From: Candidatus Dormiibacterota bacterium
Lineage (GTDB): Bacteria > Chloroflexota > Dormibacteria > Aeolococcales > Aeolococcaceae
Assembly: GCA_003153505.1 (NCBI GenBank)
Contig: PLZA01000065.1
Coordinates: 29,031 to 93,030 of the forward strand
DNA: 64,000 nucleotides
Direction: 5' to 3'
The position numbers were made by a program, and so were the translations under genes. Shown one piece after another: positions 4,174 through 62,988 of the stretch; position 1 is the first letter of the stretch; every line of letters starts with the position of its first letter. The notes beneath the pieces were generated by a model, which saw nothing but the letters and a program-made list of their open reading frames with translations, had not been told where the DNA came from and ran no database searches.

Positions 4174-4983
4174 TCATCCCAGTGCGGCCCACTGGCGCAA
4201 ATCGGAGAGCACCCGGCTGATGGGGATCGCGTAGGCCTCGGCGGCGCTCGGGCTCGCCAGAGTGACGATCCCGATCACCTGCCCGGATGCGGCGATCACC
4301 GGGCCGCCGCTGTTGCCCTGATAGATCCTCGCCCCGACCAGGTGCAGCATGTCGTTGTAGACCTGCGGAGCCGACTGTCCGGCGTCGATGCCGCTGCCCG
4401 CGAGCGGCACGCTCGCGTCGAGGCCGATCAGCGTCTCCTCGGTCATGTCGGCGTGCCCGGTGGCTCGGCTCGACGCCAGCGTGATGACCGATGCCGGGAC
4501 GGTGGCGAGCGCTCGGGCGTTGATTGGCAGCGCCGTGCCGGCCATCGTGCCCGTGACTCGGAGCATTGCGAGATCGAGGGACGCGTTGCTCTGCACCAGC
4601 CGGGCGACATGGGTGTGGTCAGAGCGGTCGGTGACCCGCAGCGAGTCGTTGCCGTTGATCACGTGCGCGTTGGTGATCACGTCCCCCGCCCCGTCGAAGA
4701 TCCACCCGGTGCCCAGGGACTCCTCGGCGCCGTTCTCGAGCTCGGCCTCGACGGTGACGACGCTCACGAGATCATCGCGACCCAGGTCGGTGAGGAACGG
4801 TGGTGCCGGGGTTGGCGTGGTTGCGGTCGGAAGGCCCACGGGGGTGACGCTCGCCGGATTGATCTGGGCGAAGTCGTTGGCAACGAGAAAGCCGGCCAGC
4901 CCGACGACCAGGAGAGCGATGATTGCCGCCAGGGCCCGTGCGACGGCGCCCGGTCGGAACGTCGGCTCGGTCCCTCGATCCAC
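4174..4983 (-). CDS. membrane-anchored trypsin-like (S1) serine protease
   Basis: N-terminal transmembrane helix followed by a Pro/Thr linker. Catalytic His (ITNAHVI) and Ser (GNSGGPVI) motifs are present. Confidence 0.8.
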   Translation of the reverse strand: MDRGTEPTFRPGAVARALAAIIALLVVGLAGFLVANDFAQINPASVTPVGLPTATTPTPAPPFLTDLGRDDLVSVVTVEAELENGAEESLGTGWIFDGAGDVITNAHVINGNDSLRVTDRSDHTHVARLVQSNASLDLAMLRVTGTMAGTALPINARALATVPASVITLASSRATGHADMTEETLIGLDASVPLAGSGIDAGQSAPQVYNDMLHLVGARIYQGNSGGPVIAASGQVIGIVTLASPSAAEAYAIPISRVLSDLRQWAALG

Positions 4984-4994
4984 GAGGAAGCATT

Positions 4995-5675
4995 GTGGTT
5001 GTTCAGCGACGCGGGATCACGGTGGTCGGTGGCGGTGGCGGAGCGCTGGGCGCGGCGGTCGTGACCCGGCTGCTTGCCGCGGGGCGCCAGGTGGTCATCC
5101 CCACACGCCACCCGGGCCGGCTGGCCACGCCGGGGGGCGTGACCGAGCTCGAGTGCGACCTCGACGATGCTGCCGCGGTCGTGCGGCTGCGCGCAGCGGT
5201 CGAAGCGATGGGAGCCTGGGAAGGCGTGGTGAGTGCGTCGGGCGGGTTCGCCGGCGGCCGCGCTCACGAGGTCGACGACGCCGCCATCCAGGAGCAGATC
5301 GCGGCAAATCTCCTTGGCCCCTGGCGTCTCGCTCGAGCTGCGGCGGCCTCGATGGTTTCGAGCGGGGCGGGCGGACGCATCGTGATTGTCGCATCGCGTG
5401 CCGCCGTCGACGTCGCCCGCGGCCAGGCGGCATATCAGGTGACCAAGGCGGCCGTGCTCCGGCTCGCCGAGGTCATGGCGGCAGAGTTGAAGGGGCACGG
5501 GATCACGGTGAACGCCGTCCTTCCCGGGACCATGGATACGCCGGCCAACCGTGAGTCGATGCCCAAGGCAAACCGCTCGTCGTGGGTGAGCACCGACGCG
5601 GTCGCCGCGATCATCGAGTGGCTGCTTTCGGAAGCCGCCGGCGCGGTGACCGGGGCAGCGATCCCCGCCGGGTGA
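4995..5675 (+). CDS. short-chain dehydrogenase/reductase (SDR) family oxidoreductase
   Basis: Rossmann motif VVGGGGGALG, catalytic YxxxK (YQVTKAA) and the NAVLPG motif are present. A GTG at 4995 is chosen so the gene does not overlap the protease stop; the open frame extends back to 4923. Confidence 0.75.
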   Translation: MVVQRRGITVVGGGGGALGAAVVTRLLAAGRQVVIPTRHPGRLATPGGVTELECDLDDAAAVVRLRAAVEAMGAWEGVVSASGGFAGGRAHEVDDAAIQEQIAANLLGPWRLARAAAASMVSSGAGGRIVIVASRAAVDVARGQAAYQVTKAAVLRLAEVMAAELKGHGITVNAVLPGTMDTPANRESMPKANRSSWVSTDAVAAIIEWLLSEAAGAVTGAAIPAG

Positions 5676-5678
5676 CCG

Positions 5679-6287
5679 TCAGCCCATCAACAGCGGCTCG
5701 AATGCTCCCGACTCGCCCAGGCGCGCGATCGCCCGTGCGCGATGGGAGACCCGCTCTTTGGCATCGTCGCTCGCGTTGCCGAAGGTGATCCCGAGATCCA
5801 TCGAGAGGAAGGCGGGGTCGTACCCGAAGCCATTGGTACCGCTCGGCTCGACGAGCGTTCCCAGGCACTCGCCATGGGCGGTCACCGGGTTGGCGCCCGG
5901 CTTGGCCAGCGCGGCGACACAGACGTAGCGCACCCGTCTGTCGTCCGGACTCCGCCGGGCCACCTCGGCGAGCAATCCATGCAGCCGGTCCTGGTCGGTT
6001 GCCGCCTCACCCATCCAGCGCGCCGACATCGGACCCGGCCACCCGTGGAGGGCGTCGACCTCGATCCCGCTGTCGTCGGCGAGCGCGGGCAGACCGGTCG
6101 CCTGGCACACGGCGAGCGCCTTGGCGAGCGCGGATTCCACGTACCCGGGCCCGGGTTCTTCGAGCGGAGCGTCAAAGCCGGCCTCATCCATCGACTTGAG
6201 GTCGAGGGTCCATGGGCTGAGGAGCACACGCAACTCGCGGATCTTTCCCGGGTTGCGTGTGGCCAGGACCAGGACCGAGCGGCTCAC
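5679..6287 (-). CDS. rdgB: non-canonical purine NTP pyrophosphatase (RdgB/HAM1 family)
   Basis: [14 protein letters not shown] and FGYDPAF motifs are present. The GTG start overlaps the rph stop (GTGA). The longer ORF upstream of this start is Arg-rich filler. Confidence 0.85.
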
Positions 6288-36460: not shown

Positions 36461-37297
36461 TTACTCAGACTGGCGACCGATCGTCCCACCTTCTGTCGGC
36501 TGATCCACACCACGCTGAGGGGGAGGATATTGCCGCACCGCGCACGCTGCGATGGTGAAGTTGCCTGTAACCATTGTGATGACGCCGCCATTCTCGCCAC
36601 TCTCGGTGAATGTGTAAGAGCCAGCAGCGCCAACGGTCATGGTGAACGGGTTGGACGGAATGTAGTCGGCTACGATGTCGGCCACGACGAGCTTGTATCC
36701 GACAGTCACGCCGCTGAATGTGGCGCTACCTGTGTCACCTGACGTTGAGCACGTCGTCGTCACGGTAACGACTGCGCACGCGCTAATGGTGAAGGGCAGC
36801 AATCCGCTGTTCGGGCCTTCAGGCGCTCCCGAGTAGGTGAATGAGTGGTCGCCAACGGTGTACGGACCACTGGTGAACGGGTTGCGGGTGACGTCCACGA
36901 CGTTACCGTCAAGCGTGATGGTGTCGGGCACGACGGGAGCGTCCTGTCCCGCTCCTGCTGTCCACGTTACGATCAAGCGTCCACCCTCAGTAGTGCCCGG
37001 AACGGCGCATGTGGTTTCCCAGCCTACGCCGGTCTGGCAGGGGCCATAACCGCACGGCCCTTCAGTCGGGCTGGGCGTAGGTGTGGAGGTCGGGGACGGC
37101 GTGGGCGTTGAGCAGTCTCCGTCGCAGCCCGTGGGCGGCGGCGAAGGCGTAGGCGTGTCGGTCGGTGACGGCGCTACTGTCGGAGCGACTGCAAGCGAGA
37201 GCGTTGGTCGCGCAGTAGGCGGCGTAACTGCCGTCGAGCCACAGGCTGCGAGGCCAACGGCGGCGATCGCAGTGCCGGCGATGGTCGCGAATTTCAC
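36461..37297 (-). CDS. putative lipoprotein with PT-rich linker and Cys-rich/beta-rich C-terminal domain
   Basis: A GGAGAGGG SD precedes the GTG start. The N-terminus is a lipoprotein signal with lipobox (VKFATIAGTAIAAVGLAACGS), followed by a TPTPSP linker. Confidence 0.6.
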   Translation of the reverse strand: MKFATIAGTAIAAVGLAACGSTAVTPPTARPTLSLAVAPTVAPSPTDTPTPSPPPTGCDGDCSTPTPSPTSTPTPSPTEGPCGYGPCQTGVGWETTCAVPGTTEGGRLIVTWTAGAGQDAPVVPDTITLDGNVVDVTRNPFTSGPYTVGDHSFTYSGAPEGPNSGLLPFTISACAVVTVTTTCSTSGDTGSATFSGVTVGYKLVVADIVADYIPSNPFTMTVGAAGSYTFTESGENGGVITMVTGNFTIAACAVRQYPPPQRGVDQPTEGGTIGRQSE

Positions 37298-37406
37298 GTC
37301 AGCTGCCCTCTCCACGAACCGACCACAGTCCTGACCGGCGCAGGGACCCTGGCCGCACTTCCTCTGGAACTCATGACGGGTGCCATACCGACCCAACGGG
37401 AACACG

Positions 37407-37667
37407 TCACGCACGGTTACATCCGCGCAAATGCGTCGAACGTGGCCCTCGCGTGTAGGCTCCGAGCCAGGGGTGATCGACGAGACTCCTGACGATCTGA
37501 CGGATACACTCGCGCGTCAGTTCAAGGGCCTCGCTGACGCTCGCCAGGTTCTCGCCGGCCTCATAGCGGTGGAGGATCTCAGCGTCTCGGCGCTCGATTA
37601 GGGGGAGCTGAGCGGTGGAGTGGCTTCCGGGCATGCCCATGCCTGCCACCCACCCCGTCGCGGGCAA
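37407..37667 (-). CDS. small sigma-70 region-4-like HTH protein
   Basis: RRDAEILHRYEAGENLASVSEALELTRECIRQI resembles a sigma-factor region 4 HTH. High GC3; start codon uncertain. Confidence 0.45.
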   Translation of the reverse strand: MPATGWVAGMGMPGSHSTAQLPLIERRDAEILHRYEAGENLASVSEALELTRECIRQIVRSLVDHPWLGAYTRGPRSTHLRGCNRA

Positions 37668-55212: not shown

Positions 55213-56313
55213 ATGGTTGTTGAGGCGGCGATCCGCTCCGCGGCGCTGCCCGACGGCCGAGCCGCCTGGCCAGTTCCGACGCCAGTCGCGATCGAAGGGC
55301 TCGGAACGGCGGTTCCACCCCATGACGTCGGCGGCGACGAGGTCCTTCGCCTGCTCACGCAACTCTGGCCGCGGCTCCAGCGTCGTGTGAGCCTCTTCGC
55401 CGACGAGCTTTCAGACACGCGCCGCTTCCTCGTCCGCCCGATCGAGGAGGCCCTGGTGCCGCTGAGCCCAGGGGCGCAGGCAGTTCGCTATGCGGCCGAT
55501 GCGACCGCGCTCGCGATCGCCGCAGCGGAGCGAGCGATCCTCGACGCTGGGACCGCGGTCGGTGACCTCGGGCTCATCGTCGTGTCGTCGTGCACCGGGT
55601 TCGTGCTCCCCGGGGTGGATGTGCAGCTGGTCAATCACCTCGGCCTCCGTCGCGATATCAGGCGTATGCCGTTTATGAACTTCGGCTGCGCAGGCGGCGC
55701 TGCGGCGCTGGCGTGGGCGTCTGATTGGGCTCGCTCGCATCCCGAGGAGTCGGCCCTGGTGGTTGCCGTCGAGGTGCCGTCGCTGACCTTCCGGCCGGCG
55801 GACACCTCGGCCGACAACCTCCTGAGCGTGCTCGTGTTCGGCGACGGTGCCGGGGCGGCGGTGCTTCGTGGGGGAACCGTCCTCGGACGCATCGGCATCG
55901 GCAGGACCGGTCATCATCTGGTGCGGTCGAGCACCGAAGCGCTCGGCTTCGAGCGGTCCGATGACGGGTTCCGCGTCGTTGTCTCCCGCCAGCTCCCCCG
56001 GCTGCTCGAGGCTCACCTTCCCGCACTGGTCGACGACTTCATCGGTCAAGCGTCCGATCTCGACGTGATCGCGCTCCATCCGGGGGGACAGGCGATCGTC
56101 GAAGCGGTCACGCGTTGCCTCGGACTCACAGACTCGCAGGTGGCGGCGACGCGCCGGGTGATGAGCAGCGTCGGCAACACCTCGTCTGCAGCAATCCTGT
56201 TCGTGCTCGAGGATCTGGCGACGCACCTCCCCTCCCCCGAGGGCCACGGCCTCGGCGCTGCCTTCGGCCCCGGGCTCATGGTCGAGCTCATCGAGCTGCT
56301 CTGGGCGTCATGA
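55213..56313 (+). CDS. type III polyketide synthase (chalcone/stilbene synthase superfamily)
   Basis: Catalytic Cys (VVSSCTGFVLPG), His/Asn regions and a C-terminal GFGPG-like motif (AAFGPGLMVE) are present. A GTG start at ~55285 is also possible. Confidence 0.85.
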   Translation: MVVEAAIRSAALPDGRAAWPVPTPVAIEGLGTAVPPHDVGGDEVLRLLTQLWPRLQRRVSLFADELSDTRRFLVRPIEEALVPLSPGAQAVRYAADATALAIAAAERAILDAGTAVGDLGLIVVSSCTGFVLPGVDVQLVNHLGLRRDIRRMPFMNFGCAGGAAALAWASDWARSHPEESALVVAVEVPSLTFRPADTSADNLLSVLVFGDGAGAAVLRGGTVLGRIGIGRTGHHLVRSSTEALGFERSDDGFRVVVSRQLPRLLEAHLPALVDDFIGQASDLDVIALHPGGQAIVEAVTRCLGLTDSQVAATRRVMSSVGNTSSAAILFVLEDLATHLPSPEGHGLGAAFGPGLMVELIELLWAS

Positions 56314-56927
56314 AGGGGCGGGCGCGAAGCGCCCTCGTGCTCGCGGCCGCGGCGCAGCGGCTCGTCGAGCTGCGGATCTCGAAGCGCAACCGCGTTGCAC
56401 TGGGCCGCGCCGAGCAGGCGTCCCCCTCGACCTACCCGGCCATGGTCGCCGTGCATGTCCTGCTCTTCGCGGTCAGCCTCTGGCCGCGCGCTGGCCGCAG
56501 GGTTTCGCGCCCGGTGGAAATCGTCGCCCTGGCGGGCCTCGGTGCGTCAGCCGGCCTGCGGCTGTGGGTCATTCGAACGCTGGGGACGACCTGGAACGTG
56601 ACGGCTCACGTGGCGCCTGAAGGGCACATCGAGACTGGGGGTCCCTATCGCTTCGTGCGCCATCCGAATTACGTCGCCGTGGCGCTGGAGTTCGCCTGCC
56701 TGCCCACGGCGGTCGGCGCCGTTCCAGAGGCGCTGGTGCTCTCGCTCGCCAACGCCGCGGTGCTCGCGCCGCGCATCCGAGCCGAGGAGCGCCTGCTCGA
56801 CGCGATCCCCGGATATCGCGAGGCGTTCCAGGACGTCCCCCGTTTCATCCCGCGCCGGATGTCCCGGAGCCGTCAGATCCCCGCCAGCAACAACCACTCG
56901 CGCGCCGTGACGTCGCGAAAGGTCTGA
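56310..56927 (+). CDS. isoprenylcysteine carboxyl methyltransferase (ICMT)-family membrane methyltransferase
   Basis: ICMT signature (YRFVRHPNYVAVALEF) on a TM protein. Its ATG overlaps the PKS stop (ATGA). Confidence 0.75.
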   Translation: MKGRARSALVLAAAAQRLVELRISKRNRVALGRAEQASPSTYPAMVAVHVLLFAVSLWPRAGRRVSRPVEIVALAGLGASAGLRLWVIRTLGTTWNVTAHVAPEGHIETGGPYRFVRHPNYVAVALEFACLPTAVGAVPEALVLSLANAAVLAPRIRAEERLLDAIPGYREAFQDVPRFIPRRMSRSRQIPASNNHSRAVTSRKV

Positions 56928-58051
56928 TATCCGCAGTTGATCGCGACGAGCTTGCCCAGTGCGCGCGGATCGCGTCCCGCTCGTTCGATGGCTCGCCGGC
57001 TGAGCCGCGGCGACTGTGCCAGGAAGAGCGCGAGTTGGGTGACGCGCCGCCGTTCGCGCACCACGCGTTCGTGGTCGATCGTGTAGCGAGTTGCGGCATC
57101 AGCGCGGGACGTCCGGCCGCCGAGGAAATCGACGAGGTGCTCCGCGACGCGTTCGGCAAGGAGCATCCCCACCGCGATGCCATCCCCCGTCGTCGGGTCG
57201 TCGTACCCGGATGCGTCACCGACAAGAAAGACGCGACCGTCCCCGGGCGTGCGCACCCGCTGATGGAACGACGCCGCGCCGAGCGGTCCTGACACCAGGT
57301 CGGAGTCGCGGAGGCTCGGGACCTCTCGACGCGCGACGCTCGCGTAGTCCCGCGCGCGCATCGGCTGGGCTCGGCCGGTGAGAATCGACACCAGCAGCAG
57401 GCCCGGTCCGACGGGAGCCTCGTACCACTCGTGACCGCGGGCGAGGGTCACCGTGACGGCGTCCCGTCCGCTTTCCTCGACGCGCCAATGGCCGGCGAGC
57501 CCGTAGCGAAGCCGCGCGTTTGATGGCGCCCTCAGCCCGGCCCAGGCACGGACCTGGGAGTGCAGACCGTCGGCACCGACGACGATGCGCGCCTGGATCG
57601 CCTCAGCCGTGGTGCTCACGCCGATCACGCTGCCCGCCCGATCGCGGATCAGCCCGGTGACTCGTTCGGCCTCCCGGACGGTGGCACGGGGCTCTCGGCG
57701 TACGGCGTCGACGAGCACGGCGTCGAAGCTGGTGCGGCGAACGCCAAGCCCGGCCGCCGGCCCGCCGTCCGGCGGGGCGGGGAACGGTACGTGGACCCTC
57801 GGCCCGGGCCCGGGCTGACGGTAGGTCACTCCCCGGATCGGCTGTGCACCGGTGGCCAGGACGGGGTCATACAGTCGCATTTTTCGGAGTACCGCCACAC
57901 CTGGGGGCATGACCCCTTCGCCGCATGCCTTGTCGCGCGGAAAGCGCGCGCGATCGACGAGCACCACGTCGTGACCGCTCCTCGCGATGAGGAGCGCGGT
58001 TGTTGCCCCGCTTGGGCCCGCGCCCACCACCACGACCTCGGTCTCGGTCAC
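56873..58051 (-). CDS. FAD-dependent monooxygenase/oxidoreductase (geranylgeranyl-reductase-like)
   Basis: Dinucleotide-binding motif VVVVGAGPSGATTALLIARSGHDVVLVDR is present. GTG start. The 3' end overlaps the convergent ICMT gene by 55 bp. Confidence 0.75.
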   Translation of the reverse strand: MTETEVVVVGAGPSGATTALLIARSGHDVVLVDRARFPRDKACGEGVMPPGVAVLRKMRLYDPVLATGAQPIRGVTYRQPGPGPRVHVPFPAPPDGGPAAGLGVRRTSFDAVLVDAVRREPRATVREAERVTGLIRDRAGSVIGVSTTAEAIQARIVVGADGLHSQVRAWAGLRAPSNARLRYGLAGHWRVEESGRDAVTVTLARGHEWYEAPVGPGLLLVSILTGRAQPMRARDYASVARREVPSLRDSDLVSGPLGAASFHQRVRTPGDGRVFLVGDASGYDDPTTGDGIAVGMLLAERVAEHLVDFLGGRTSRADAATRYTIDHERVVRERRRVTQLALFLAQSPRLSRRAIERAGRDPRALGKLVAINCGYQTFRDVTAREWLLLAGI

Positions 58052-58133
58052 GCAGGGACTGTCGCAGAACGACGTCGCAATGGGCGTTCGGCAGCGGACC
58101 GCATGCGACGGACCCCGGGTGGATGATGCATCC

Positions 58134-59366
58134 GTGAACTTCCTCTCGGGACTGCATGGCGCCGTCGCCCTGGCCCTGCTCCCAGCGCTGCTGTTCGCGG
58201 AGGAGGCAGGGGTCCCACTGCCGTTCGCCCCGGGGGAGCTGACCCTGCTGGTCGCGGGCCTGCTAATCGCCTCGGGTGGCCTCAATCCCTATGCCTTCAT
58301 CCCGCTCTCATTGGTCGCCTGCATTGCCGGGTCGCTGGTCGGATACAGCTGGGCCCGTGCCGTCGGCGACCGTGGTCTCAAGGGGCTCGCCCGCCGTCTT
58401 CGCCAGCAGCGCAACCTCGAGCGGGTCGAGGAGCGGCTTCGTGCCGCCGGATGGAGAGGCATCGCCATCAGCCGGCTGATTCCCGGCCTGCGCATCTACA
58501 CCACGCTGGTCGCCGGAGCCGTGCGAGCTCCGCGACGGTCATTCGTCCTCGCCATGGTCTCGTCGACGGTGGTCTGGGTCGGGGTCTACGTAGCTCTGGG
58601 AATCCTCATCGGCGTGCCGGTGGAGCACTTCCTCGATCAGCTTCAGAAGCTCGCCGTCCAGGGCGCCATCCTCATCGTGATGGGTGTCGGCTGCTACCTG
58701 GCGGTGCGCAAGACTCCGTCGTCATCCGGAGCCGGCCTCGTCCGGGTGCCCCGCTGGGTTCGAGTCGTCCTGGCCGCTCTGGTCGACATCGGCGTCGTCG
58801 CGAGCATCGTCACCGGGCTGCTCGCGCTCGGCCGCCTGCTCGGGGTCGGTTTCGGCAGCGGCTGGGTGGACGGGGTCGTCGTCCTCCTCGTCGTGGGAGC
58901 GTTCTACGTGATCGTCGCCAGGCGGAGCGCCGGGGCGACCGCCGGCGAGGTGTTGCTCCAGACGAGCTACATCAGCGGTCACGGCCTGCCGCTCAAACCC
59001 CGCGCCGCGCTCGAGGCGGTCCGCTCCCTGGTGACCAGGTCGGACGACGAGCTGACCGCCACCGGTGACCTCCTCCACGCCCTGGGCGATCCCGACCGGC
59101 TGCGGATCGTGACCCAGCTGCTGGACCGACCGCGGACGCTCGACGAGCTCGCCTCGCGCTCGAATCTCTCGGCCTTCGAGATCAGGCATCAGCTGGATCG
59201 ATTCCGGTCGAGCGGCGTCCTCGTGATCAGCGGACAGGAACCGGATGCGACCTACGCGATCCGCGCCGATCTGGGCCACGTGCTCGTACAGCTGCTGGCC
59301 ATCGTGGAGGCGACAACTGCCTCAACCGCGGCGCAGGAGGCCGCGCCCAAGCCGGCGCAGGTATAG
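58134..59366 (+). CDS. DedA (VTT-domain) membrane protein fused to a C-terminal ArsR/SmtB-type winged-HTH
   Basis: N-terminal DedA core (LPFAPGELTLLVAGLLIASG..ISRLIPGLRIYTTLVAG), extra TM helices, then an ArsR-type HTH. Start could be the ATG at 58080. Confidence 0.7.
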   Translation: MNFLSGLHGAVALALLPALLFAEEAGVPLPFAPGELTLLVAGLLIASGGLNPYAFIPLSLVACIAGSLVGYSWARAVGDRGLKGLARRLRQQRNLERVEERLRAAGWRGIAISRLIPGLRIYTTLVAGAVRAPRRSFVLAMVSSTVVWVGVYVALGILIGVPVEHFLDQLQKLAVQGAILIVMGVGCYLAVRKTPSSSGAGLVRVPRWVRVVLAALVDIGVVASIVTGLLALGRLLGVGFGSGWVDGVVVLLVVGAFYVIVARRSAGATAGEVLLQTSYISGHGLPLKPRAALEAVRSLVTRSDDELTATGDLLHALGDPDRLRIVTQLLDRPRTLDELASRSNLSAFEIRHQLDRFRSSGVLVISGQEPDATYAIRADLGHVLVQLLAIVEATTASTAAQEAAPKPAQV

Positions 59367-59375
59367 GCGAATCCT

Positions 59376-60395
59376 TCAGAAGGCCCCAACGATCAGGGCG
59401 CAGACCGCCGCCATGAGAGCGGTCGCCGGAATGGTGAGCACCCACGCGACGAGAATGTTTCGCGCTACGCCCCATCGCACCGCGCCGAGTCGTCGTGTCG
59501 CCCCCGCCCCCATCACCGATCCCGACACAACGTGGGTCGTGCTCACCGGCAACGCGAGTTGGGTCGCGCCCTGGATCACCACCGCAGCCATGGTCTGAGC
59601 GCAGAAGCCATCGACCGGCTCGAGGCGAATCACTCGCATGCCCAGGGTTCTGATGATTCGCCACCCGCCCGCGTACGTCCCGAATCCGATCGCTGTCGCC
59701 GCCAGGAGGACCACCCAGAGTGGGGGTGAGGGAAATTGCTTGCCACTTGCGGAGATGACGCCCGCGCTGACCAGGGCAAGCGTGATCACGCCCATCGTCT
59801 TCTGGGCGTCGTTGGCTCCGTGCGAGAACGACACGAAGGCACCAGAGGCGATCTGCGCCATGCGAAATCGCCGGTTCATGGGGCTCGGCTGCGCATGCCG
59901 GAAGACGTCGAGGGTGAGGCTGGTGAAGAGATATGCGAGCACGAGCCCGATGAGCGGTGACGCGACGAGCGCGATCACGACGGGGACTACCGAACCCCAC
60001 TTCACCGCGGCGAAGCCGTACGCGACCACCCCCATGCCGACAAGTGCACCGATCAGCGCGTGCGACGAACTGGACGGTAGGCCGAGGCGCCAGGTGATGA
60101 GGTTCCAGATGATCGCGCCCACAAGCGCGGCGATGATCATGCCGAGGGAGACACCGTGCTTCGGGGCCACCAGCCCGCCGATGGTGTTGGCAACGTGGGT
60201 ATGCAGGATCTCGATGGCGATCAGGGCACCGAGAAGATTGAAGGCGGCCGACATCGCGACCGCGGTTCGCGGGCCGAGCGCCCGCGTGCTGATCGACGTC
60301 GCGACAGCATTCGCGGTGTCGTGAAACCCGTTGGTGAAATCGAATCCGAGCGCGATCACCACGGTCGCGATCAGGAGCGCATCGATGCCCGTCAC
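59376..60395 (-). CDS. inorganic phosphate transporter (PiT family)
   Basis: The PiT signature GFDFTNGFHDTANAVATSI is present near the N-terminus and repeated in the C-terminal half. Confidence 0.9.
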   Translation of the reverse strand: MTGIDALLIATVVIALGFDFTNGFHDTANAVATSISTRALGPRTAVAMSAAFNLLGALIAIEILHTHVANTIGGLVAPKHGVSLGMIIAALVGAIIWNLITWRLGLPSSSSHALIGALVGMGVVAYGFAAVKWGSVVPVVIALVASPLIGLVLAYLFTSLTLDVFRHAQPSPMNRRFRMAQIASGAFVSFSHGANDAQKTMGVITLALVSAGVISASGKQFPSPPLWVVLLAATAIGFGTYAGGWRIIRTLGMRVIRLEPVDGFCAQTMAAVVIQGATQLALPVSTTHVVSGSVMGAGATRRLGAVRWGVARNILVAWVLTIPATALMAAVCALIVGAF

Positions 60396-61012
60396 GCGTT
60401 CTTGATGATGATGCCTTCGATAACGTTGGCCACGTCCTCGCAGCGATCCAGCGAGTCCTCGAGCAGCGTGTAGAAGTCCTTGAGCTTGATGATCTCGACG
60501 GCGTCGTACCCGCCGCGAAACAGCTCCCCGATTGCCCTCCGCGACTCGGTGTCGCCGACGTTCTCGATACGGTGGACTTCGATGCCGTGTTCACGCACCC
60601 CGGCCTTCGCCTCGAGCTTGGATACCGCAGCCTGAATCTGGCCGGCGGCAGCGACGATCAGTCCGGCCATCGATTTCGCCGCCGCCGAGATATCGCTGAT
60701 GCCATAGAGAATGATCGTCTCCGCGATTTCATCGATGTAGTCGAGCACGTCGTCGAGGCCCGAGCTGAGCGCGTAGATATCCTCACGATCGAAGGGTGTG
60801 ATGAACGTCCGGTGGAGGGTCTGGATGATCTCGTGGGTCACCTCATCGCCGGCGTGCTCGAGATCCTTGATCGCCGTCTGGTGCGCGGGCATCGACGCGA
60901 TATCGTCATCGAACGCATCCCGAAGCAGCTGCGATGCGGCGACGACGTTACCCGCCTGGCGATCGAACAGCTCGTAGAAACGCCGTTCCCGGCGCAGAAG
61001 ACTGATGGGCAT
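60392..61012 (-). CDS. DUF47/PhoU-like phosphate transport regulator
   Basis: 206 aa helical protein encoded immediately upstream of PiT with overlapping stop/start. MPISLLRRERRFYELFD is a DUF47-type N-terminus. Confidence 0.85.
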   Translation of the reverse strand: MPISLLRRERRFYELFDRQAGNVVAASQLLRDAFDDDIASMPAHQTAIKDLEHAGDEVTHEIIQTLHRTFITPFDREDIYALSSGLDDVLDYIDEIAETIILYGISDISAAAKSMAGLIVAAAGQIQAAVSKLEAKAGVREHGIEVHRIENVGDTESRRAIGELFRGGYDAVEIIKLKDFYTLLEDSLDRCEDVANVIEGIIIKNA

Positions 61013-61374
61013 GGACGCGCAGATCCTACTCGAAGGACCCTAAGCGCGATCGTCCGGAGGCGTCCATCAGCGATTCACCCCGCGAGTCGGGATGCGGTGC
61101 AAACAGGTCACGCCGTTCGGCGGCAGCGCGCGGTGCGACGCGCAGGTCACCCGCGCGCAACAAGACTCCGAACCCTTTCGTGGTCGAGCCCTGGGCGGGC
61201 GAATCTTTGCACTGGCCCTGCCCCGGGCCGATCGCCAGGTCAAATGCGGAGAGGGGTCCCGCGGGGGATTGACAGATCGCAGACGTCACAACGCCGCCGG
61301 GACCCGAGGCCGTCCCGGCCGGCCATCAGTGGCAACGTCGTCCCATCCTGAGCCTGCTCGTTCGCGCCGCGGTC

Positions 61375-62988
61375 GTGGTCATTCCCGCCGGCGTCGGGAT
61401 CACGGCCGGAGTGGTGATCAGCCGTGTGCTCCCGCGGCCAGATGGATTCGGCGCGGCCGCGCTGTCGTTTGCAGCCGTGAGCCTGGTGATGCTCGTGACG
61501 ATCATCGCGCTCGAGCGCGCCGGTCGTCGTCTCCTGCCGCTCGCCGCACTGCTCAACCTGTCGTTGCTCTTTCCGGATCGAGCGCCCAAGCGATTCGCGG
61601 TCGCTCGCCGGGTCGGGAAGCCACGCGACCTGCAGCGCCGGCTCCAGGAGGCGCGCGACAAAGGAGTGACGGGTGGCGAGGTGGCGCACATGCAGACGGT
61701 GCTGGAACTCGTTGCGGCGCTGAGCGTGCACGACCGCCAGACGCGTGGACACTCCGAGCGAGTGCGCGTGTTTGCGGACCTCATCGCTGACGAGATGAAG
61801 CTCGCCCCCGGTGATCGCGCCCGTCTCCGCTGGGCCTCCCTGCTCCACGACATCGGCAAATTGGTGGTCCCTGCCGAGATTCTGTCGAAGCCGGCGAAGC
61901 TCAGCCACGCCGAGATGGAGAACGTCCGCCGCCATCCCGATGAAGGCGCTCGGCTCATCGGGCCCCTGAGCGCATGGCTCGGCGAATGGGCAGGCGCGGT
62001 GCCCCACCACCACGAACGCTTCGATGGTCGCGGCTATCCGCGCGGTCTCGCAGGCGACCAGATCTCGCTTGCCGGTCGCATCGTCGCGGTCGCCGACTCG
62101 TACGAGGTCATGACTGCGATGCGCCCATATCGCAAGCCGGTCAGCGTGTCCGCAGCGCGGCAGGAGCTGGTCGAGTGTTCAGGAGCGCAGTTCGATCCCA
62201 TCGTGGTTCGCGCGTTTCTCAACATCTCCATGGGCCGCCTGTGGCGCGTCGTCGGTCTTGGTTCGTGGATCGCGCAACTGCCGCTGATCGGCTGGGTCGA
62301 TCGCCTGGGATGGAACTGGGGGGCTGCGATCATGTCGGGCACGACTGCGCTCGGCCTGACAGCGCCGGGTCTGATCCCGAGCGCCCCGCCGTCCGCAAGC
62401 CCGACCTTCGGCATTTCGGTCGTCTCGAGCGGCGGTACAACTGCGCGGACAAACCCTGGATTGGGTGCCGGCGCACCGGATGGCACCACGGGGAGTGCAC
62501 CGTCAGGGCAGACCACGACGACGCGTCCCGCGGGGGGAACCACGGGACAGTCCGGAGGCAGTCCGGGTGGCGGTGGTGCGCCCGCCTCAACCCCGCCGTC
62601 ACCTGCCCCGTCACTGTCGCCTCCGACGCCGGGTTCCACCCCCATAACGCCGACGCCGTCCCCGACTCCACCGCCAACAGCGACGCCCACGCCGCCTCCC
62701 GATCTTCCACCGGTCGTGACCGTCAACCCGGGCGGCCTCGTCGCGCTCGGTCTCTACAGGAACGGCTCGGGAGGCTTTACGGACGCCGACTTCGCCGGCC
62801 ACACGTTCACCGCGACGGTGAACTACGGCGACGGGAGCCCGACGGTGCCGCTCGCGTTGAGTGGGGCGACCTTCGTCCTGGCGCATAACTACAGCACCAT
62901 CCTCGCGACATACACCGTGACCGTCACGGTCACCGACAACGACGGTGTGTCAGGTACCGGGACGACCACTGTGACCGTGATCTTCTAG
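61375..62988 (+). CDS. membrane-anchored HD-GYP phosphohydrolase with C-terminal PT-rich linker and PKD-like domain
   Basis: Two N-terminal TM helices, an HD motif (LLHDIGK) and a GYP motif (HHERFDGRGYPRG). Further hydrophobic segments precede a Pro/Thr/Ser linker and a PKD signature. Confidence 0.8.
   Translation: MVIPAGVGITAGVVISRVLPRPDGFGAAALSFAAVSLVMLVTIIALERAGRRLLPLAALLNLSLLFPDRAPKRFAVARRVGKPRDLQRRLQEARDKGVTGGEVAHMQTVLELVAALSVHDRQTRGHSERVRVFADLIADEMKLAPGDRARLRWASLLHDIGKLVVPAEILSKPAKLSHAEMENVRRHPDEGARLIGPLSAWLGEWAGAVPHHHERFDGRGYPRGLAGDQISLAGRIVAVADSYEVMTAMRPYRKPVSVSAARQELVECSGAQFDPIVVRAFLNISMGRLWRVVGLGSWIAQLPLIGWVDRLGWNWGAAIMSGTTALGLTAPGLIPSAPPSASPTFGISVVSSGGTTARTNPGLGAGAPDGTTGSAPSGQTTTTRPAGGTTGQSGGSPGGGGAPASTPPSPAPSLSPPTPGSTPITPTPSPTPPPTATPTPPPDLPPVVTVNPGGLVALGLYRNGSGGFTDADFAGHTFTATVNYGDGSPTVPLALSGATFVLAHNYSTILATYTVTVTVTDNDGVSGTGTTTVTVIF

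Follow-up and report, generated by a model that had tools for sequence, protein, structure and literature searches.

A Candidatus Dormibacterota membrane protein joining an HD-GYP domain to a C-terminal PKD domain predicted to lie outside the cell

Introduction

A 64,000-nucleotide stretch of the genome of a Candidatus Dormiibacterota bacterium (assembly GCA_003153505.1, contig PLZA01000065.1, positions 29,031 to 93,030; hereafter the window, to whose first letter all positions refer) contains an open reading frame (ORF) for a membrane protein in which an HD-GYP domain is followed by a Pro/Thr-rich linker and a PKD domain. On which side of the membrane does the PKD domain lie, and what could it do for the enzyme? 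We consider it probable that the product is a three-pass membrane HD-GYP phosphodiesterase that carries its PKD domain on an outside stalk, in the manner of receptor kinases of the PknB type.

According to the census of Galperin & Chou (bioRxiv 10.1101/2021.11.05.467447), HD-GYP domains are "typically found at the C-termini", and one-component HD-GYP proteins possess N-terminal dCache, PBPb or CHASE2 sensors or membrane domains of the MASE9-12 types; to the knowledge of its authors (2021), none of the HD-GYP proteins that possess an extracytoplasmic sensor had been experimentally characterised. Like these proteins, the window protein is membrane-bound and would join the outside or the membrane to hydrolysis of cyclic di-GMP (c-di-GMP). 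In the one-component proteins, however, the sensor is N-terminal, the output domain is C-terminal and the sensors are small-molecule-binding folds, whereas the window protein and its relatives show the inverted order, with a stalk that bears an Ig-like or adhesin-type module and a loop of only 6-8 residues (LPRPDGFG in the window protein) between the first two transmembrane helices (TM1 and TM2).

Results

An HD-GYP domain with intact catalytic motifs

The Pfam profile HD_5 (PF13487) matched residues 115-275 of the window protein with 122.6 bits (E=1.9e-35; cutoff 27.2 bits), and the profile HD (PF01966) matched as well (E=1e-17); NCBIfam profiles added nothing specific for this protein. HD_5 was also matched by 65/65 close homologs and 146/146 distant representatives. 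The characteristic motifs are DRQTRGHSERV (residues 120-130), HDIGK (158-162), HPDEG (187-191), HHERFDGRGYP (212-222), VADSY (239-243) and FDP (273-275). They include all ligands of a binuclear metal site (H126, H158-D159, H187, H212-H213 and D241), the substrate-binding Lys (K162) and the GYP signature itself (G220-Y221-P222). We aligned 147 representatives that are 37-52% identical to the window protein with the latter; in this 148-sequence alignment the columns of the metal ligands, the Lys and GYP are invariant, and they align with those of PmGH, PA4781 and V-cGAP3.

AlphaFold2 (AF2) was run twice. With close homologs only, the mean pLDDT (predicted local distance difference test) was 59.8, the PKD domain being modelled well and the HD-GYP and membrane parts poorly. 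With the 148 diverse sequences, the core of TM1, TM2 and HD-GYP was confident, and pLDDT reached 92-98 over the HD-GYP domain. In Foldseek comparisons, this domain resembled those of PA4781 (target TM-score 0.73), DvhD (0.77-0.79) and PmGH (E=1e-9; 0.45 against PmGH's longer chain). By sequence, the matches in the PDB were V-cGAP3 (E=8e-35), PmGH (1.5e-27) and PA4781 (1.9e-24). PmGH (4MCW), PA4781 (4R8Z) and V-cGAP3 (5Z7C) share the catalytic domain with the window protein in both sequence and fold, and the latter has kept the HD, HH, D, K and GYP motifs; those three proteins are soluble and have an N-terminal GAF or REC domain or tandem HD-GYP domains, whereas the HD-GYP domain of the window protein is clamped by transmembrane helices and followed by a C-terminal ectodomain.

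Judged by its motifs, the HD-GYP domain looks catalytically competent. Its likely substrates are c-di-GMP and/or pGpG, and 3'3'-cyclic GMP-AMP (3'3'-cGAMP) is also possible; we left this choice wide because, among solved proteins, the cGAMP-specific V-cGAP3 is closest in sequence.

A PKD domain at the end of a low-complexity linker

The profile PKD_4 (PF18911) matched residues 466-535 of the window protein with 25.9 bits (E=1e-5), slightly below the 27-bit cutoff. The same profile was found in 55 of the 65 close homologs at E of at most 0.01 (best E=6.9e-15), and one relative (P0165) scored 67.3 bits. In the AF2 run with close homologs, the last ~90 residues formed a beta-sandwich with pLDDT 88-98. 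Foldseek against the PDB placed the PKD domains of the clostridial collagenases ColG and ColH at the top (target TM-score 0.73-0.76, root-mean-square deviation 2.6-2.8 A, 21-27% identity, E from 9e-6), followed by those of Vibrio Epp and PrtV (target TM-score 0.68-0.76 over all four proteins). The window domain has the same fold and the same "xxYGDGS" motif as these; they belong to secreted hydrolases, whereas the window domain is attached to a signalling enzyme of the membrane. In some Dormibacterota members, PKD is present twice.

Between the membrane parts and the PKD domain, residues 340-450 consist of 24% Pro, 20% Thr, 17% Gly and 14% Ser and contain four charged residues only. A preliminary description of this DNA, made from the letters and the translated ORFs, had proposed an HD-GYP core, N-terminal transmembrane helices, a long Pro/Thr/Ser linker and a C-terminal PKD-like domain. 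All four parts were borne out: the core by the HD_5 match and the complete set of metal ligands and GYP, the helices as two strong ones with Kyte-Doolittle (KD) values of 2.2-2.5, the linker as ~110 residues with 75% Pro/Thr/Gly/Ser, and the end domain by its fold and by a profile match just short of the cutoff here and stronger in relatives, both of which point to PKD/Ig-like structures. The coordinates of all parts are listed in Table 1.

Table 1. Features of the HD-GYP/PKD gene and its product (window positions; AF2 helices 309-335 in extended numbering where indicated)
Feature	Position	Strand	Description	Evidence
Whole ORF, membrane HD-GYP protein with C-terminal PKD	61375..62988	+	537 aa, GTG start, stop included	
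Probable N-terminal extension	61273..61374	+	34 in-frame codons after TGA 61270-72; translation QIADVTTPPGPEAVPAGHQWQRRPILSLLVRAAV	Homolog alignment
TM1	61345..61422	+	In to out; starts inside the upstream extension; preceded by positive flank QWQRRP	KD 2.2-2.4 (with extension); AF2 helix 24-52, pLDDT 84-96
TM2	61450..61512	+	Out to in	KD 2.5; rough central-scale dG ~ -1.8 kcal/mol; AF2 helix 59-95
Conserved cytoplasmic juxtamembrane region	61513..61716	+	ERAGRRLLPLAALLNLSLLFPDRAPKRFAVARRVGKPRDL...	Conservation 0.91 in subfamily; no Pfam/NCBIfam match
HD-GYP catalytic domain	61717..62199	+	Residues 115-275	HD_5 profile, fold, motifs
Conserved post-HD-GYP helix	62197..62301	+	FDPIVVRAFLNISMGRLWRVVGLGSWIAQLPLIGWV	AF2 helix 309-335 (extended numbering), pLDDT 92-74; conservation 0.87
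TM3	62320..62376	+	GAAIMSGTTALGLTAPGLI, residues 316-334; sole predicted pass after the catalytic domain, in to out	KD 1.23-1.3; family alignment
Low-complexity P/T/G/S-rich linker	62377..62715	+	~113 residues; predicted extracytoplasmic stalk	Composition; pLDDT <50 in both AF2 runs
PKD domain	62716..62985	+	Residues ~448-537, including VNYGDGS motif	PKD_4 profile, AF2, Foldseek

The window protein as a branch of a large family

Among the database matches, the best 120 showed 51-97% identity to the window protein and were mostly ~440-770 aa long; those with names came nearly all from metagenome-assembled genomes (MAGs) of Candidatus Dormibacterota, and many carried precomputed HD_5 and PKD_4 assignments. 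Public annotation of these relatives reads merely "HD-GYP domain-containing protein". Close full-length relatives in species-representative genomes were likewise from Dormibacterota MAGs, one of them labelled Chloroflexi. A protein of 639 aa from an Acidimicrobiaceae MAG (43% identity) showed, by eye, the same order of parts with a different beta-rich end domain. An FN3 domain read by eye in the Acidimicrobiaceae homolog (L011) was not confirmed by Pfam and was dropped.

In an exhaustive search of 1.84 billion cluster representatives, the top 150 scored 330-586 bits, nearly all at 40-58% identity, with lengths of 298-1666 aa; two closer sequences among them were partial, and most of the 150 aligned from TM1 into the linker. 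A profile built from representatives retrieved 3815 proteins at E of at most 1e-30 among 8000 candidates scored, the 120th best still reaching 599 bits, and its named matches belonged to Acidimicrobiales, Actinomycetota and Dormibacterota. The preliminary description did not recognise the combination of parts. Judging from these alignments, it is not unique to this gene, and the window protein is the Dormibacterota branch of a large undescribed family that also occurs in Acidimicrobiia/Actinomycetota.

The family core has a constant order: a positive N-terminal flank (QWQRRP), TM1, a short loop (LPxPxG), TM2, a juxtamembrane stretch and the HD-GYP domain. The juxtamembrane stretch follows a nearly invariant consensus, ERAxRRLLPLAALLNLSLLFPDxAPxRFxVARR, in which P89, P101, P105 and R107 are invariant across the 148 sequences. 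After the HD-GYP domain come the motif FDPxVVRAFLNISxGRLWRxxGxxxWxAQLP, a variable loop, one hydrophobic segment and a P/A/T/G/S-rich tail.

It is the tail that varies. Across the family its length ranged from 65 to 1298 residues (median 202), with a composition of 17% Pro, 16% Ala, 12% Thr, 11% Gly and 10% Ser. A Pfam census of the tails of 146 representatives gave Big_9 (21), Cadherin_5 (17), Cadherin_4 (16), fn3 (8), PKD_4 (4) and Pentapeptide (4), and more rarely He_PIG, CshA repeats and DUF642 (2 each); PASTA, C-type lectin (Lectin_C), Laminin_G_3, LTD, DUF11, FecR and several Big_* families occurred as single cases. These domains were C-terminal wherever their position was checked, as with the PASTA domain of P0246 (residues 490-552 of 557 aa) and the fn3 domain of P0330 (466-550); P0210 has 10-11 Big_9/cadherin repeats. 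By domain content, the PKD form of the window is one variant of a modular design with interchangeable end modules.

Topology of the C-terminal half

The stretch that follows TM2 is strongly basic (7.8 K+R per 24 residues). Two family members (P0255 and P0272) are fusions in which a GGDEF domain (residues 147-290 and 189-331, respectively) precedes TM1, so that a diguanylate cyclase domain stands before the transmembrane hairpin and a phosphodiesterase domain after it. The GGDEF domain must be cytoplasmic, and therefore the N-terminus of the family is inside. The side on which the tail lies then depends on the segments after the HD-GYP domain.

In the window protein there are two such segments. 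The first, VVGLGSWIAQLPLIGWV, has a KD value of 1.5 in a 17-residue window (1.08-1.5 overall), and the second is TM3 of Table 1. Both are charge-free in 65/65 close homologs and preceded by three Arg/Lys. A rough central-position hydrophobicity sum, with position-dependent terms omitted, gave +5 to +7 kcal/mol for both and is to be read as "marginal". In AF2 the first segment appeared as the last HD-GYP helix lengthened by 3-4 turns. TM3 stayed without a confident model even with 148 diverse sequences, and AF2 for this reason left the topology unsettled.

These values lend some credit to an arrangement in which the whole C-terminal half is cytoplasmic, with either no membrane pass or a two-helix hairpin after the HD-GYP domain, and in which the PKD domain is an intracellular interaction module. 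Both segments fall below the classical threshold for a transmembrane helix and are no more hydrophobic than the beta-strands of the PKD domain, the first is W-rich and charge-free between an R and a D, which makes a hairpin conceivable in the Dormibacterota subfamily, and AF2 confidence is low over the post-HD-GYP region. The family as a whole speaks otherwise. Over 140 representatives, the first segment has a median KD of 0.71 (19-residue window) and 2.2 charged residues, and so is not a transmembrane helix; a single transmembrane segment remains. That segment, aligned with residues 316-334 of the window protein, has a median KD of 1.69, reaches at least 1.6 in 96 of the 140 and contains a mean of 0.19 charges, and a further strong hydrophobic window downstream of it was found in 1/140. 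One transmembrane helix after the HD-GYP domain is an odd number, and the tail is therefore predicted to be outside. The charges around it agree: the flank is net positive before TM3 (K+R 1.56, D+E 0.45) and net negative over the 20 residues after it (K+R 0.89, D+E 1.61), and K+R are more numerous before than after in 77 representatives, the reverse being true of 29.

The modules at the end of the tails point in the same direction. PASTA, FN3, Big_9, cadherin-like, C-type lectin and Laminin_G domains and adhesin repeats are types typical of extracellular proteins. To our knowledge, PASTA occurs solely in the extracytoplasmic parts of penicillin-binding proteins and PknB-type kinases. In the same genome, a predicted lipoprotein of 317 aa (36461-37414, -) has a lipoprotein-like signal with the lipobox …AAVGLAAC|GS, which is followed directly by a PT-rich linker and Cys-containing beta-rich domains. 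This linker is of the same kind as the stalk of the HD-GYP protein and supports an exported stalk. A wholly cytoplasmic C-terminal half therefore seems unlikely in the face of the family-wide hydropathy, the charge bias and the tail modules.

Of the hydrophobic segments that the preliminary description had placed after the HD-GYP core, both exist and are moderately hydrophobic; the second is probably a transmembrane helix on the family data, whereas the first is better described as a prolonged HD-GYP helix. A membrane-spanning helix after the HD-GYP domain, marginal by hydropathy in the window protein alone, looks like a normal one across the 140 representatives. The conserved post-HD-GYP helix FDPIVVRAFLNISMGRLWRVVGLGSWIAQLPLIGWV is probably cytoplasmic or interfacial rather than transmembrane. 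The extracellular placement of the PKD domain, also proposed there, accords with the charge bias, the GGDEF fusions and the types of tail domain, and we regard it as likely that the PKD domain lies outside the membrane.

A receptor-like arrangement and how it might work

Receptor Ser/Thr kinases of the PknB type in Actinomycetota consist of a kinase domain, a transmembrane helix, a linker and a PASTA or other ectodomain. The window family is predicted to have the same design, a cytoplasmic enzyme, a single transmembrane helix and a C-terminal ectodomain, and P0246 even has PASTA at the place of PKD. The catalytic domains are unrelated, and the window family has an extra N-terminal transmembrane hairpin. 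For PknB, the usual view is that its PASTA ectodomain acts through positioning or clustering.

By analogy, the window protein would have a cytoplasmic N-terminus and a TM1/TM2 hairpin almost without an outside loop. The HD-GYP domain would sit at the inner face of the membrane, clamped on both sides by conserved helices, and would hydrolyse c-di-GMP or a related dinucleotide. TM3 would take the chain out, and the stalk of ~110 Pro/Thr-rich residues would hold the PKD domain within the cell wall or past it, where it may bind an envelope or extracellular polymer, a surface, the matrix or a neighbouring cell. Such binding might fix the position of the enzyme and/or gather molecules and thereby turn local hydrolysis of the second messenger on or off. 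A low-complexity stalk of more than 100 residues cannot relay a conformational change, and coupling is therefore likely to proceed via positioning or clustering; clustering would switch hydrolysis because HD-GYP enzymes act as dimers. In a more speculative variant, tension on TM3 would be passed to the prolonged last HD-GYP helix. The two invariant membrane-proximal motifs are obvious candidates for the coupling device.

A wider claim would be that the family constitutes an unrecognised class of cyclic-dinucleotide receptors, in which an HD-GYP phosphodiesterase is controlled from outside by a swappable C-terminal Ig-like, adhesin or PASTA ectodomain on a stalk that senses contact, matrix, wall or tension, with the two invariant motifs as the coupling device. 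In Dormibacterota and Acidimicrobiia, whatever the cell surface meets would then act directly on the breakdown of c-di-GMP. We offer this tentatively, as a possibility in which we place rather little confidence.

The signal could also run in the opposite direction. If the protein were an inside-out receptor, as LapD and DvhD are, its HD-GYP domain would mainly bind c-di-GMP and the nucleotide state would be relayed outward to the PKD module, for example in adhesion. In DvhD, the HD-GYP domain serves as a c-di-GMP-binding switch within a transmembrane protein; it is degenerate (HD to SQ, HH to MN) and inactive, and the periplasmic dCache domain is N-terminal (PMC13090378). DvhD, like LapD, is a transmembrane protein linked to adhesion, its HD-GYP domain is cytoplasmic and among the best structural matches of the window domain, and tails such as that of P0210 are adhesin-like. 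Receptors of that type, however, have a degenerate nucleotide-binding domain and, between two N-terminal transmembrane helices, a folded periplasmic output domain. DvhD has lost its metal ligands, whereas HD, HH, D and GYP are intact and invariant in the window family; TM1 and TM2 enclose no periplasmic domain, and the C-terminal ectodomain is borne on a flexible, disordered stalk unable to carry a conformational signal to PKD. We consider this mode of action improbable, and below an all-cytoplasmic tail in likelihood.

Several points weigh against a PknB-like phosphodiesterase receptor itself. TM3 of the window protein has little hydrophobicity, its KD of 1.2-1.3 falling short of the classical 1.6, and was modelled without confidence in either AF2 run. 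The disordered stalk leaves only clustering, tension or localisation as ways of signalling, which is speculation. Gln122 in HDRQTRGH, 4 residues before the first His, aligns with the Glu of KDPETQNH in PmGH. We take this Glu to be the ligand of the third iron (Bellini et al. 2014). Having Gln in its place makes the site one of the binuclear type, as in PA4781, and not trinuclear, and the activity may resemble that of PA4781, a weak binuclear enzyme. No conserved neighbour pointing to a pathway was found across the neighbourhoods examined (the window, P0059, P0037 and distant members). Finally, what is known of the family comes from sequences and models.

That an HD-GYP gene was joined to a separate PKD gene by faulty assembly, by the merging of two gene calls or by read-through is scarcely credible: the gene is split in some assemblies (P0095 and P0137 lie on one contig, and the tails of P0112 and P0115 are frameshifted) and the PKD part, used as the only query, brought up mainly pieces of 80-100 aa from the same gene and no new architectures, but the reading frame is continuous in the window, the full-length architecture recurs in dozens of independent assemblies (JGI, ENA, NCBI and Logan), including contigs of Mb size, and the same design with other tail domains occurs in another phylum. 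In the split cases (P0095 with P0137, P0112 and P0115), the frameshift lies inside the GC-rich linker, and PKD is then called as a separate protein of 80-100 aa; these frameshifts may be assembly errors in low-complexity DNA or real decay.

We came across no account of this architecture in the literature searched; both the enzyme and the modules are known, but their order is inverted and resembles that of receptor kinases. The text of the HD-GYP census (10.1101/2021.11.05.467447) does not mention PKD, nor does that of a review on c-di-GMP sensing mention PKD/Ig-like domains. Searching full texts for HD-GYP together with PKD, with FN3 or with Acidimicrobiia gave nothing relevant, and no paper containing both "Dormibacterota" and "c-di-GMP" was found among those searched. 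The inverted order with adhesin-like modules spans hundreds of sequence clusters from Terrabacteria of soil and water, which are little studied or uncultured, and the arrangement would be noteworthy to specialists in c-di-GMP. If the ectodomain governs the enzyme, the probable PknB-like phosphodiesterase would link contact at the surface or the cell wall directly to turnover of the second messenger in monoderm-type bacteria, and would also provide a handle on c-di-GMP biology in Dormibacterota. If it does not, the proteins still make up a clearly delimited family that has two invariant motifs, lacks annotation and deserves a database entry.

Start of the gene

The called GTG at 61375 is probably not the true start of the HD-GYP/PKD gene, because the 34 codons upstream align with the N-termini of homologs: they match those of P0003, P0059, P0070 and P0090 residue for residue, with HQWQRRP(V/I)LSxLVR conserved. 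By this alignment, the true start probably lies upstream of 61375. The in-frame stretch 61273-61374 contains no ATG, GTG or TTG; candidate starts in it are ATC 61276 (with a GGGGGA run 7 nt upstream), ATC 61345, CTG 61348 and CTG 61354. ORFs that overlap the gene in other frames are the usual by-product of a G+C content of ~68%.

Gene neighbourhood

Upstream and divergent from the HD-GYP gene lies a pair encoding a PhoU_div/DUF47 protein and a PHO4/Pit phosphate transporter (59376-61012, -), followed by a DedA/VTT protein and a group with a type III polyketide synthase (PKS) and an FAD-monooxygenase. The same order of neighbours was seen beside P0059, and the Pit/PhoU_div pair is present in one related genome (L001) but not in another (L017). 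A functional link between the HD-GYP gene and this pair was considered and rejected: the pair stands beside P0059 but not beside P0037, and the neighbours of distant members are unrelated. The adjacency is synteny, and the HD-GYP/PKD gene is taken to be stand-alone.

Neither a GGDEF motif nor a second HD-GYP was found within the window. Among the neighbourhoods examined, an adjacent GGDEF gene was present in one distant member only: on L015, the gene for P0248 (6001-9639, 1212 aa, with a Big_9/cadherin tail) is divergent from that of a 306-aa GGDEF protein (4858-5778, -), and PAS-GAF-SpoIIE, STAS and HATPase_c_2 genes of a partner-switching kind lie near it.

The DedA/VTT membrane protein (57987-59366, +) has its DedA/VTT domain at residues 82-206 and a long C-terminal extension in which residues 368-410 weakly match the ArsR-type HTH_5 profile, with 20.8 bits where the cutoff is 22. 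By its domain content it could be a membrane-tethered transcription regulator.

The type III PKS and the FAD-dependent monooxygenase are encoded together at 55213-58285 on both strands, the intervening ORF of the window lying outside the scan. In L001 (1571-4418) and L017 (1274-4122), a gene for a methyltransferase of the PEMT/ICMT family lies between those of the PKS and the monooxygenase. The grouping of PKS, methyltransferase and monooxygenase genes is reminiscent of phenolic-lipid clusters of the srsABC type.

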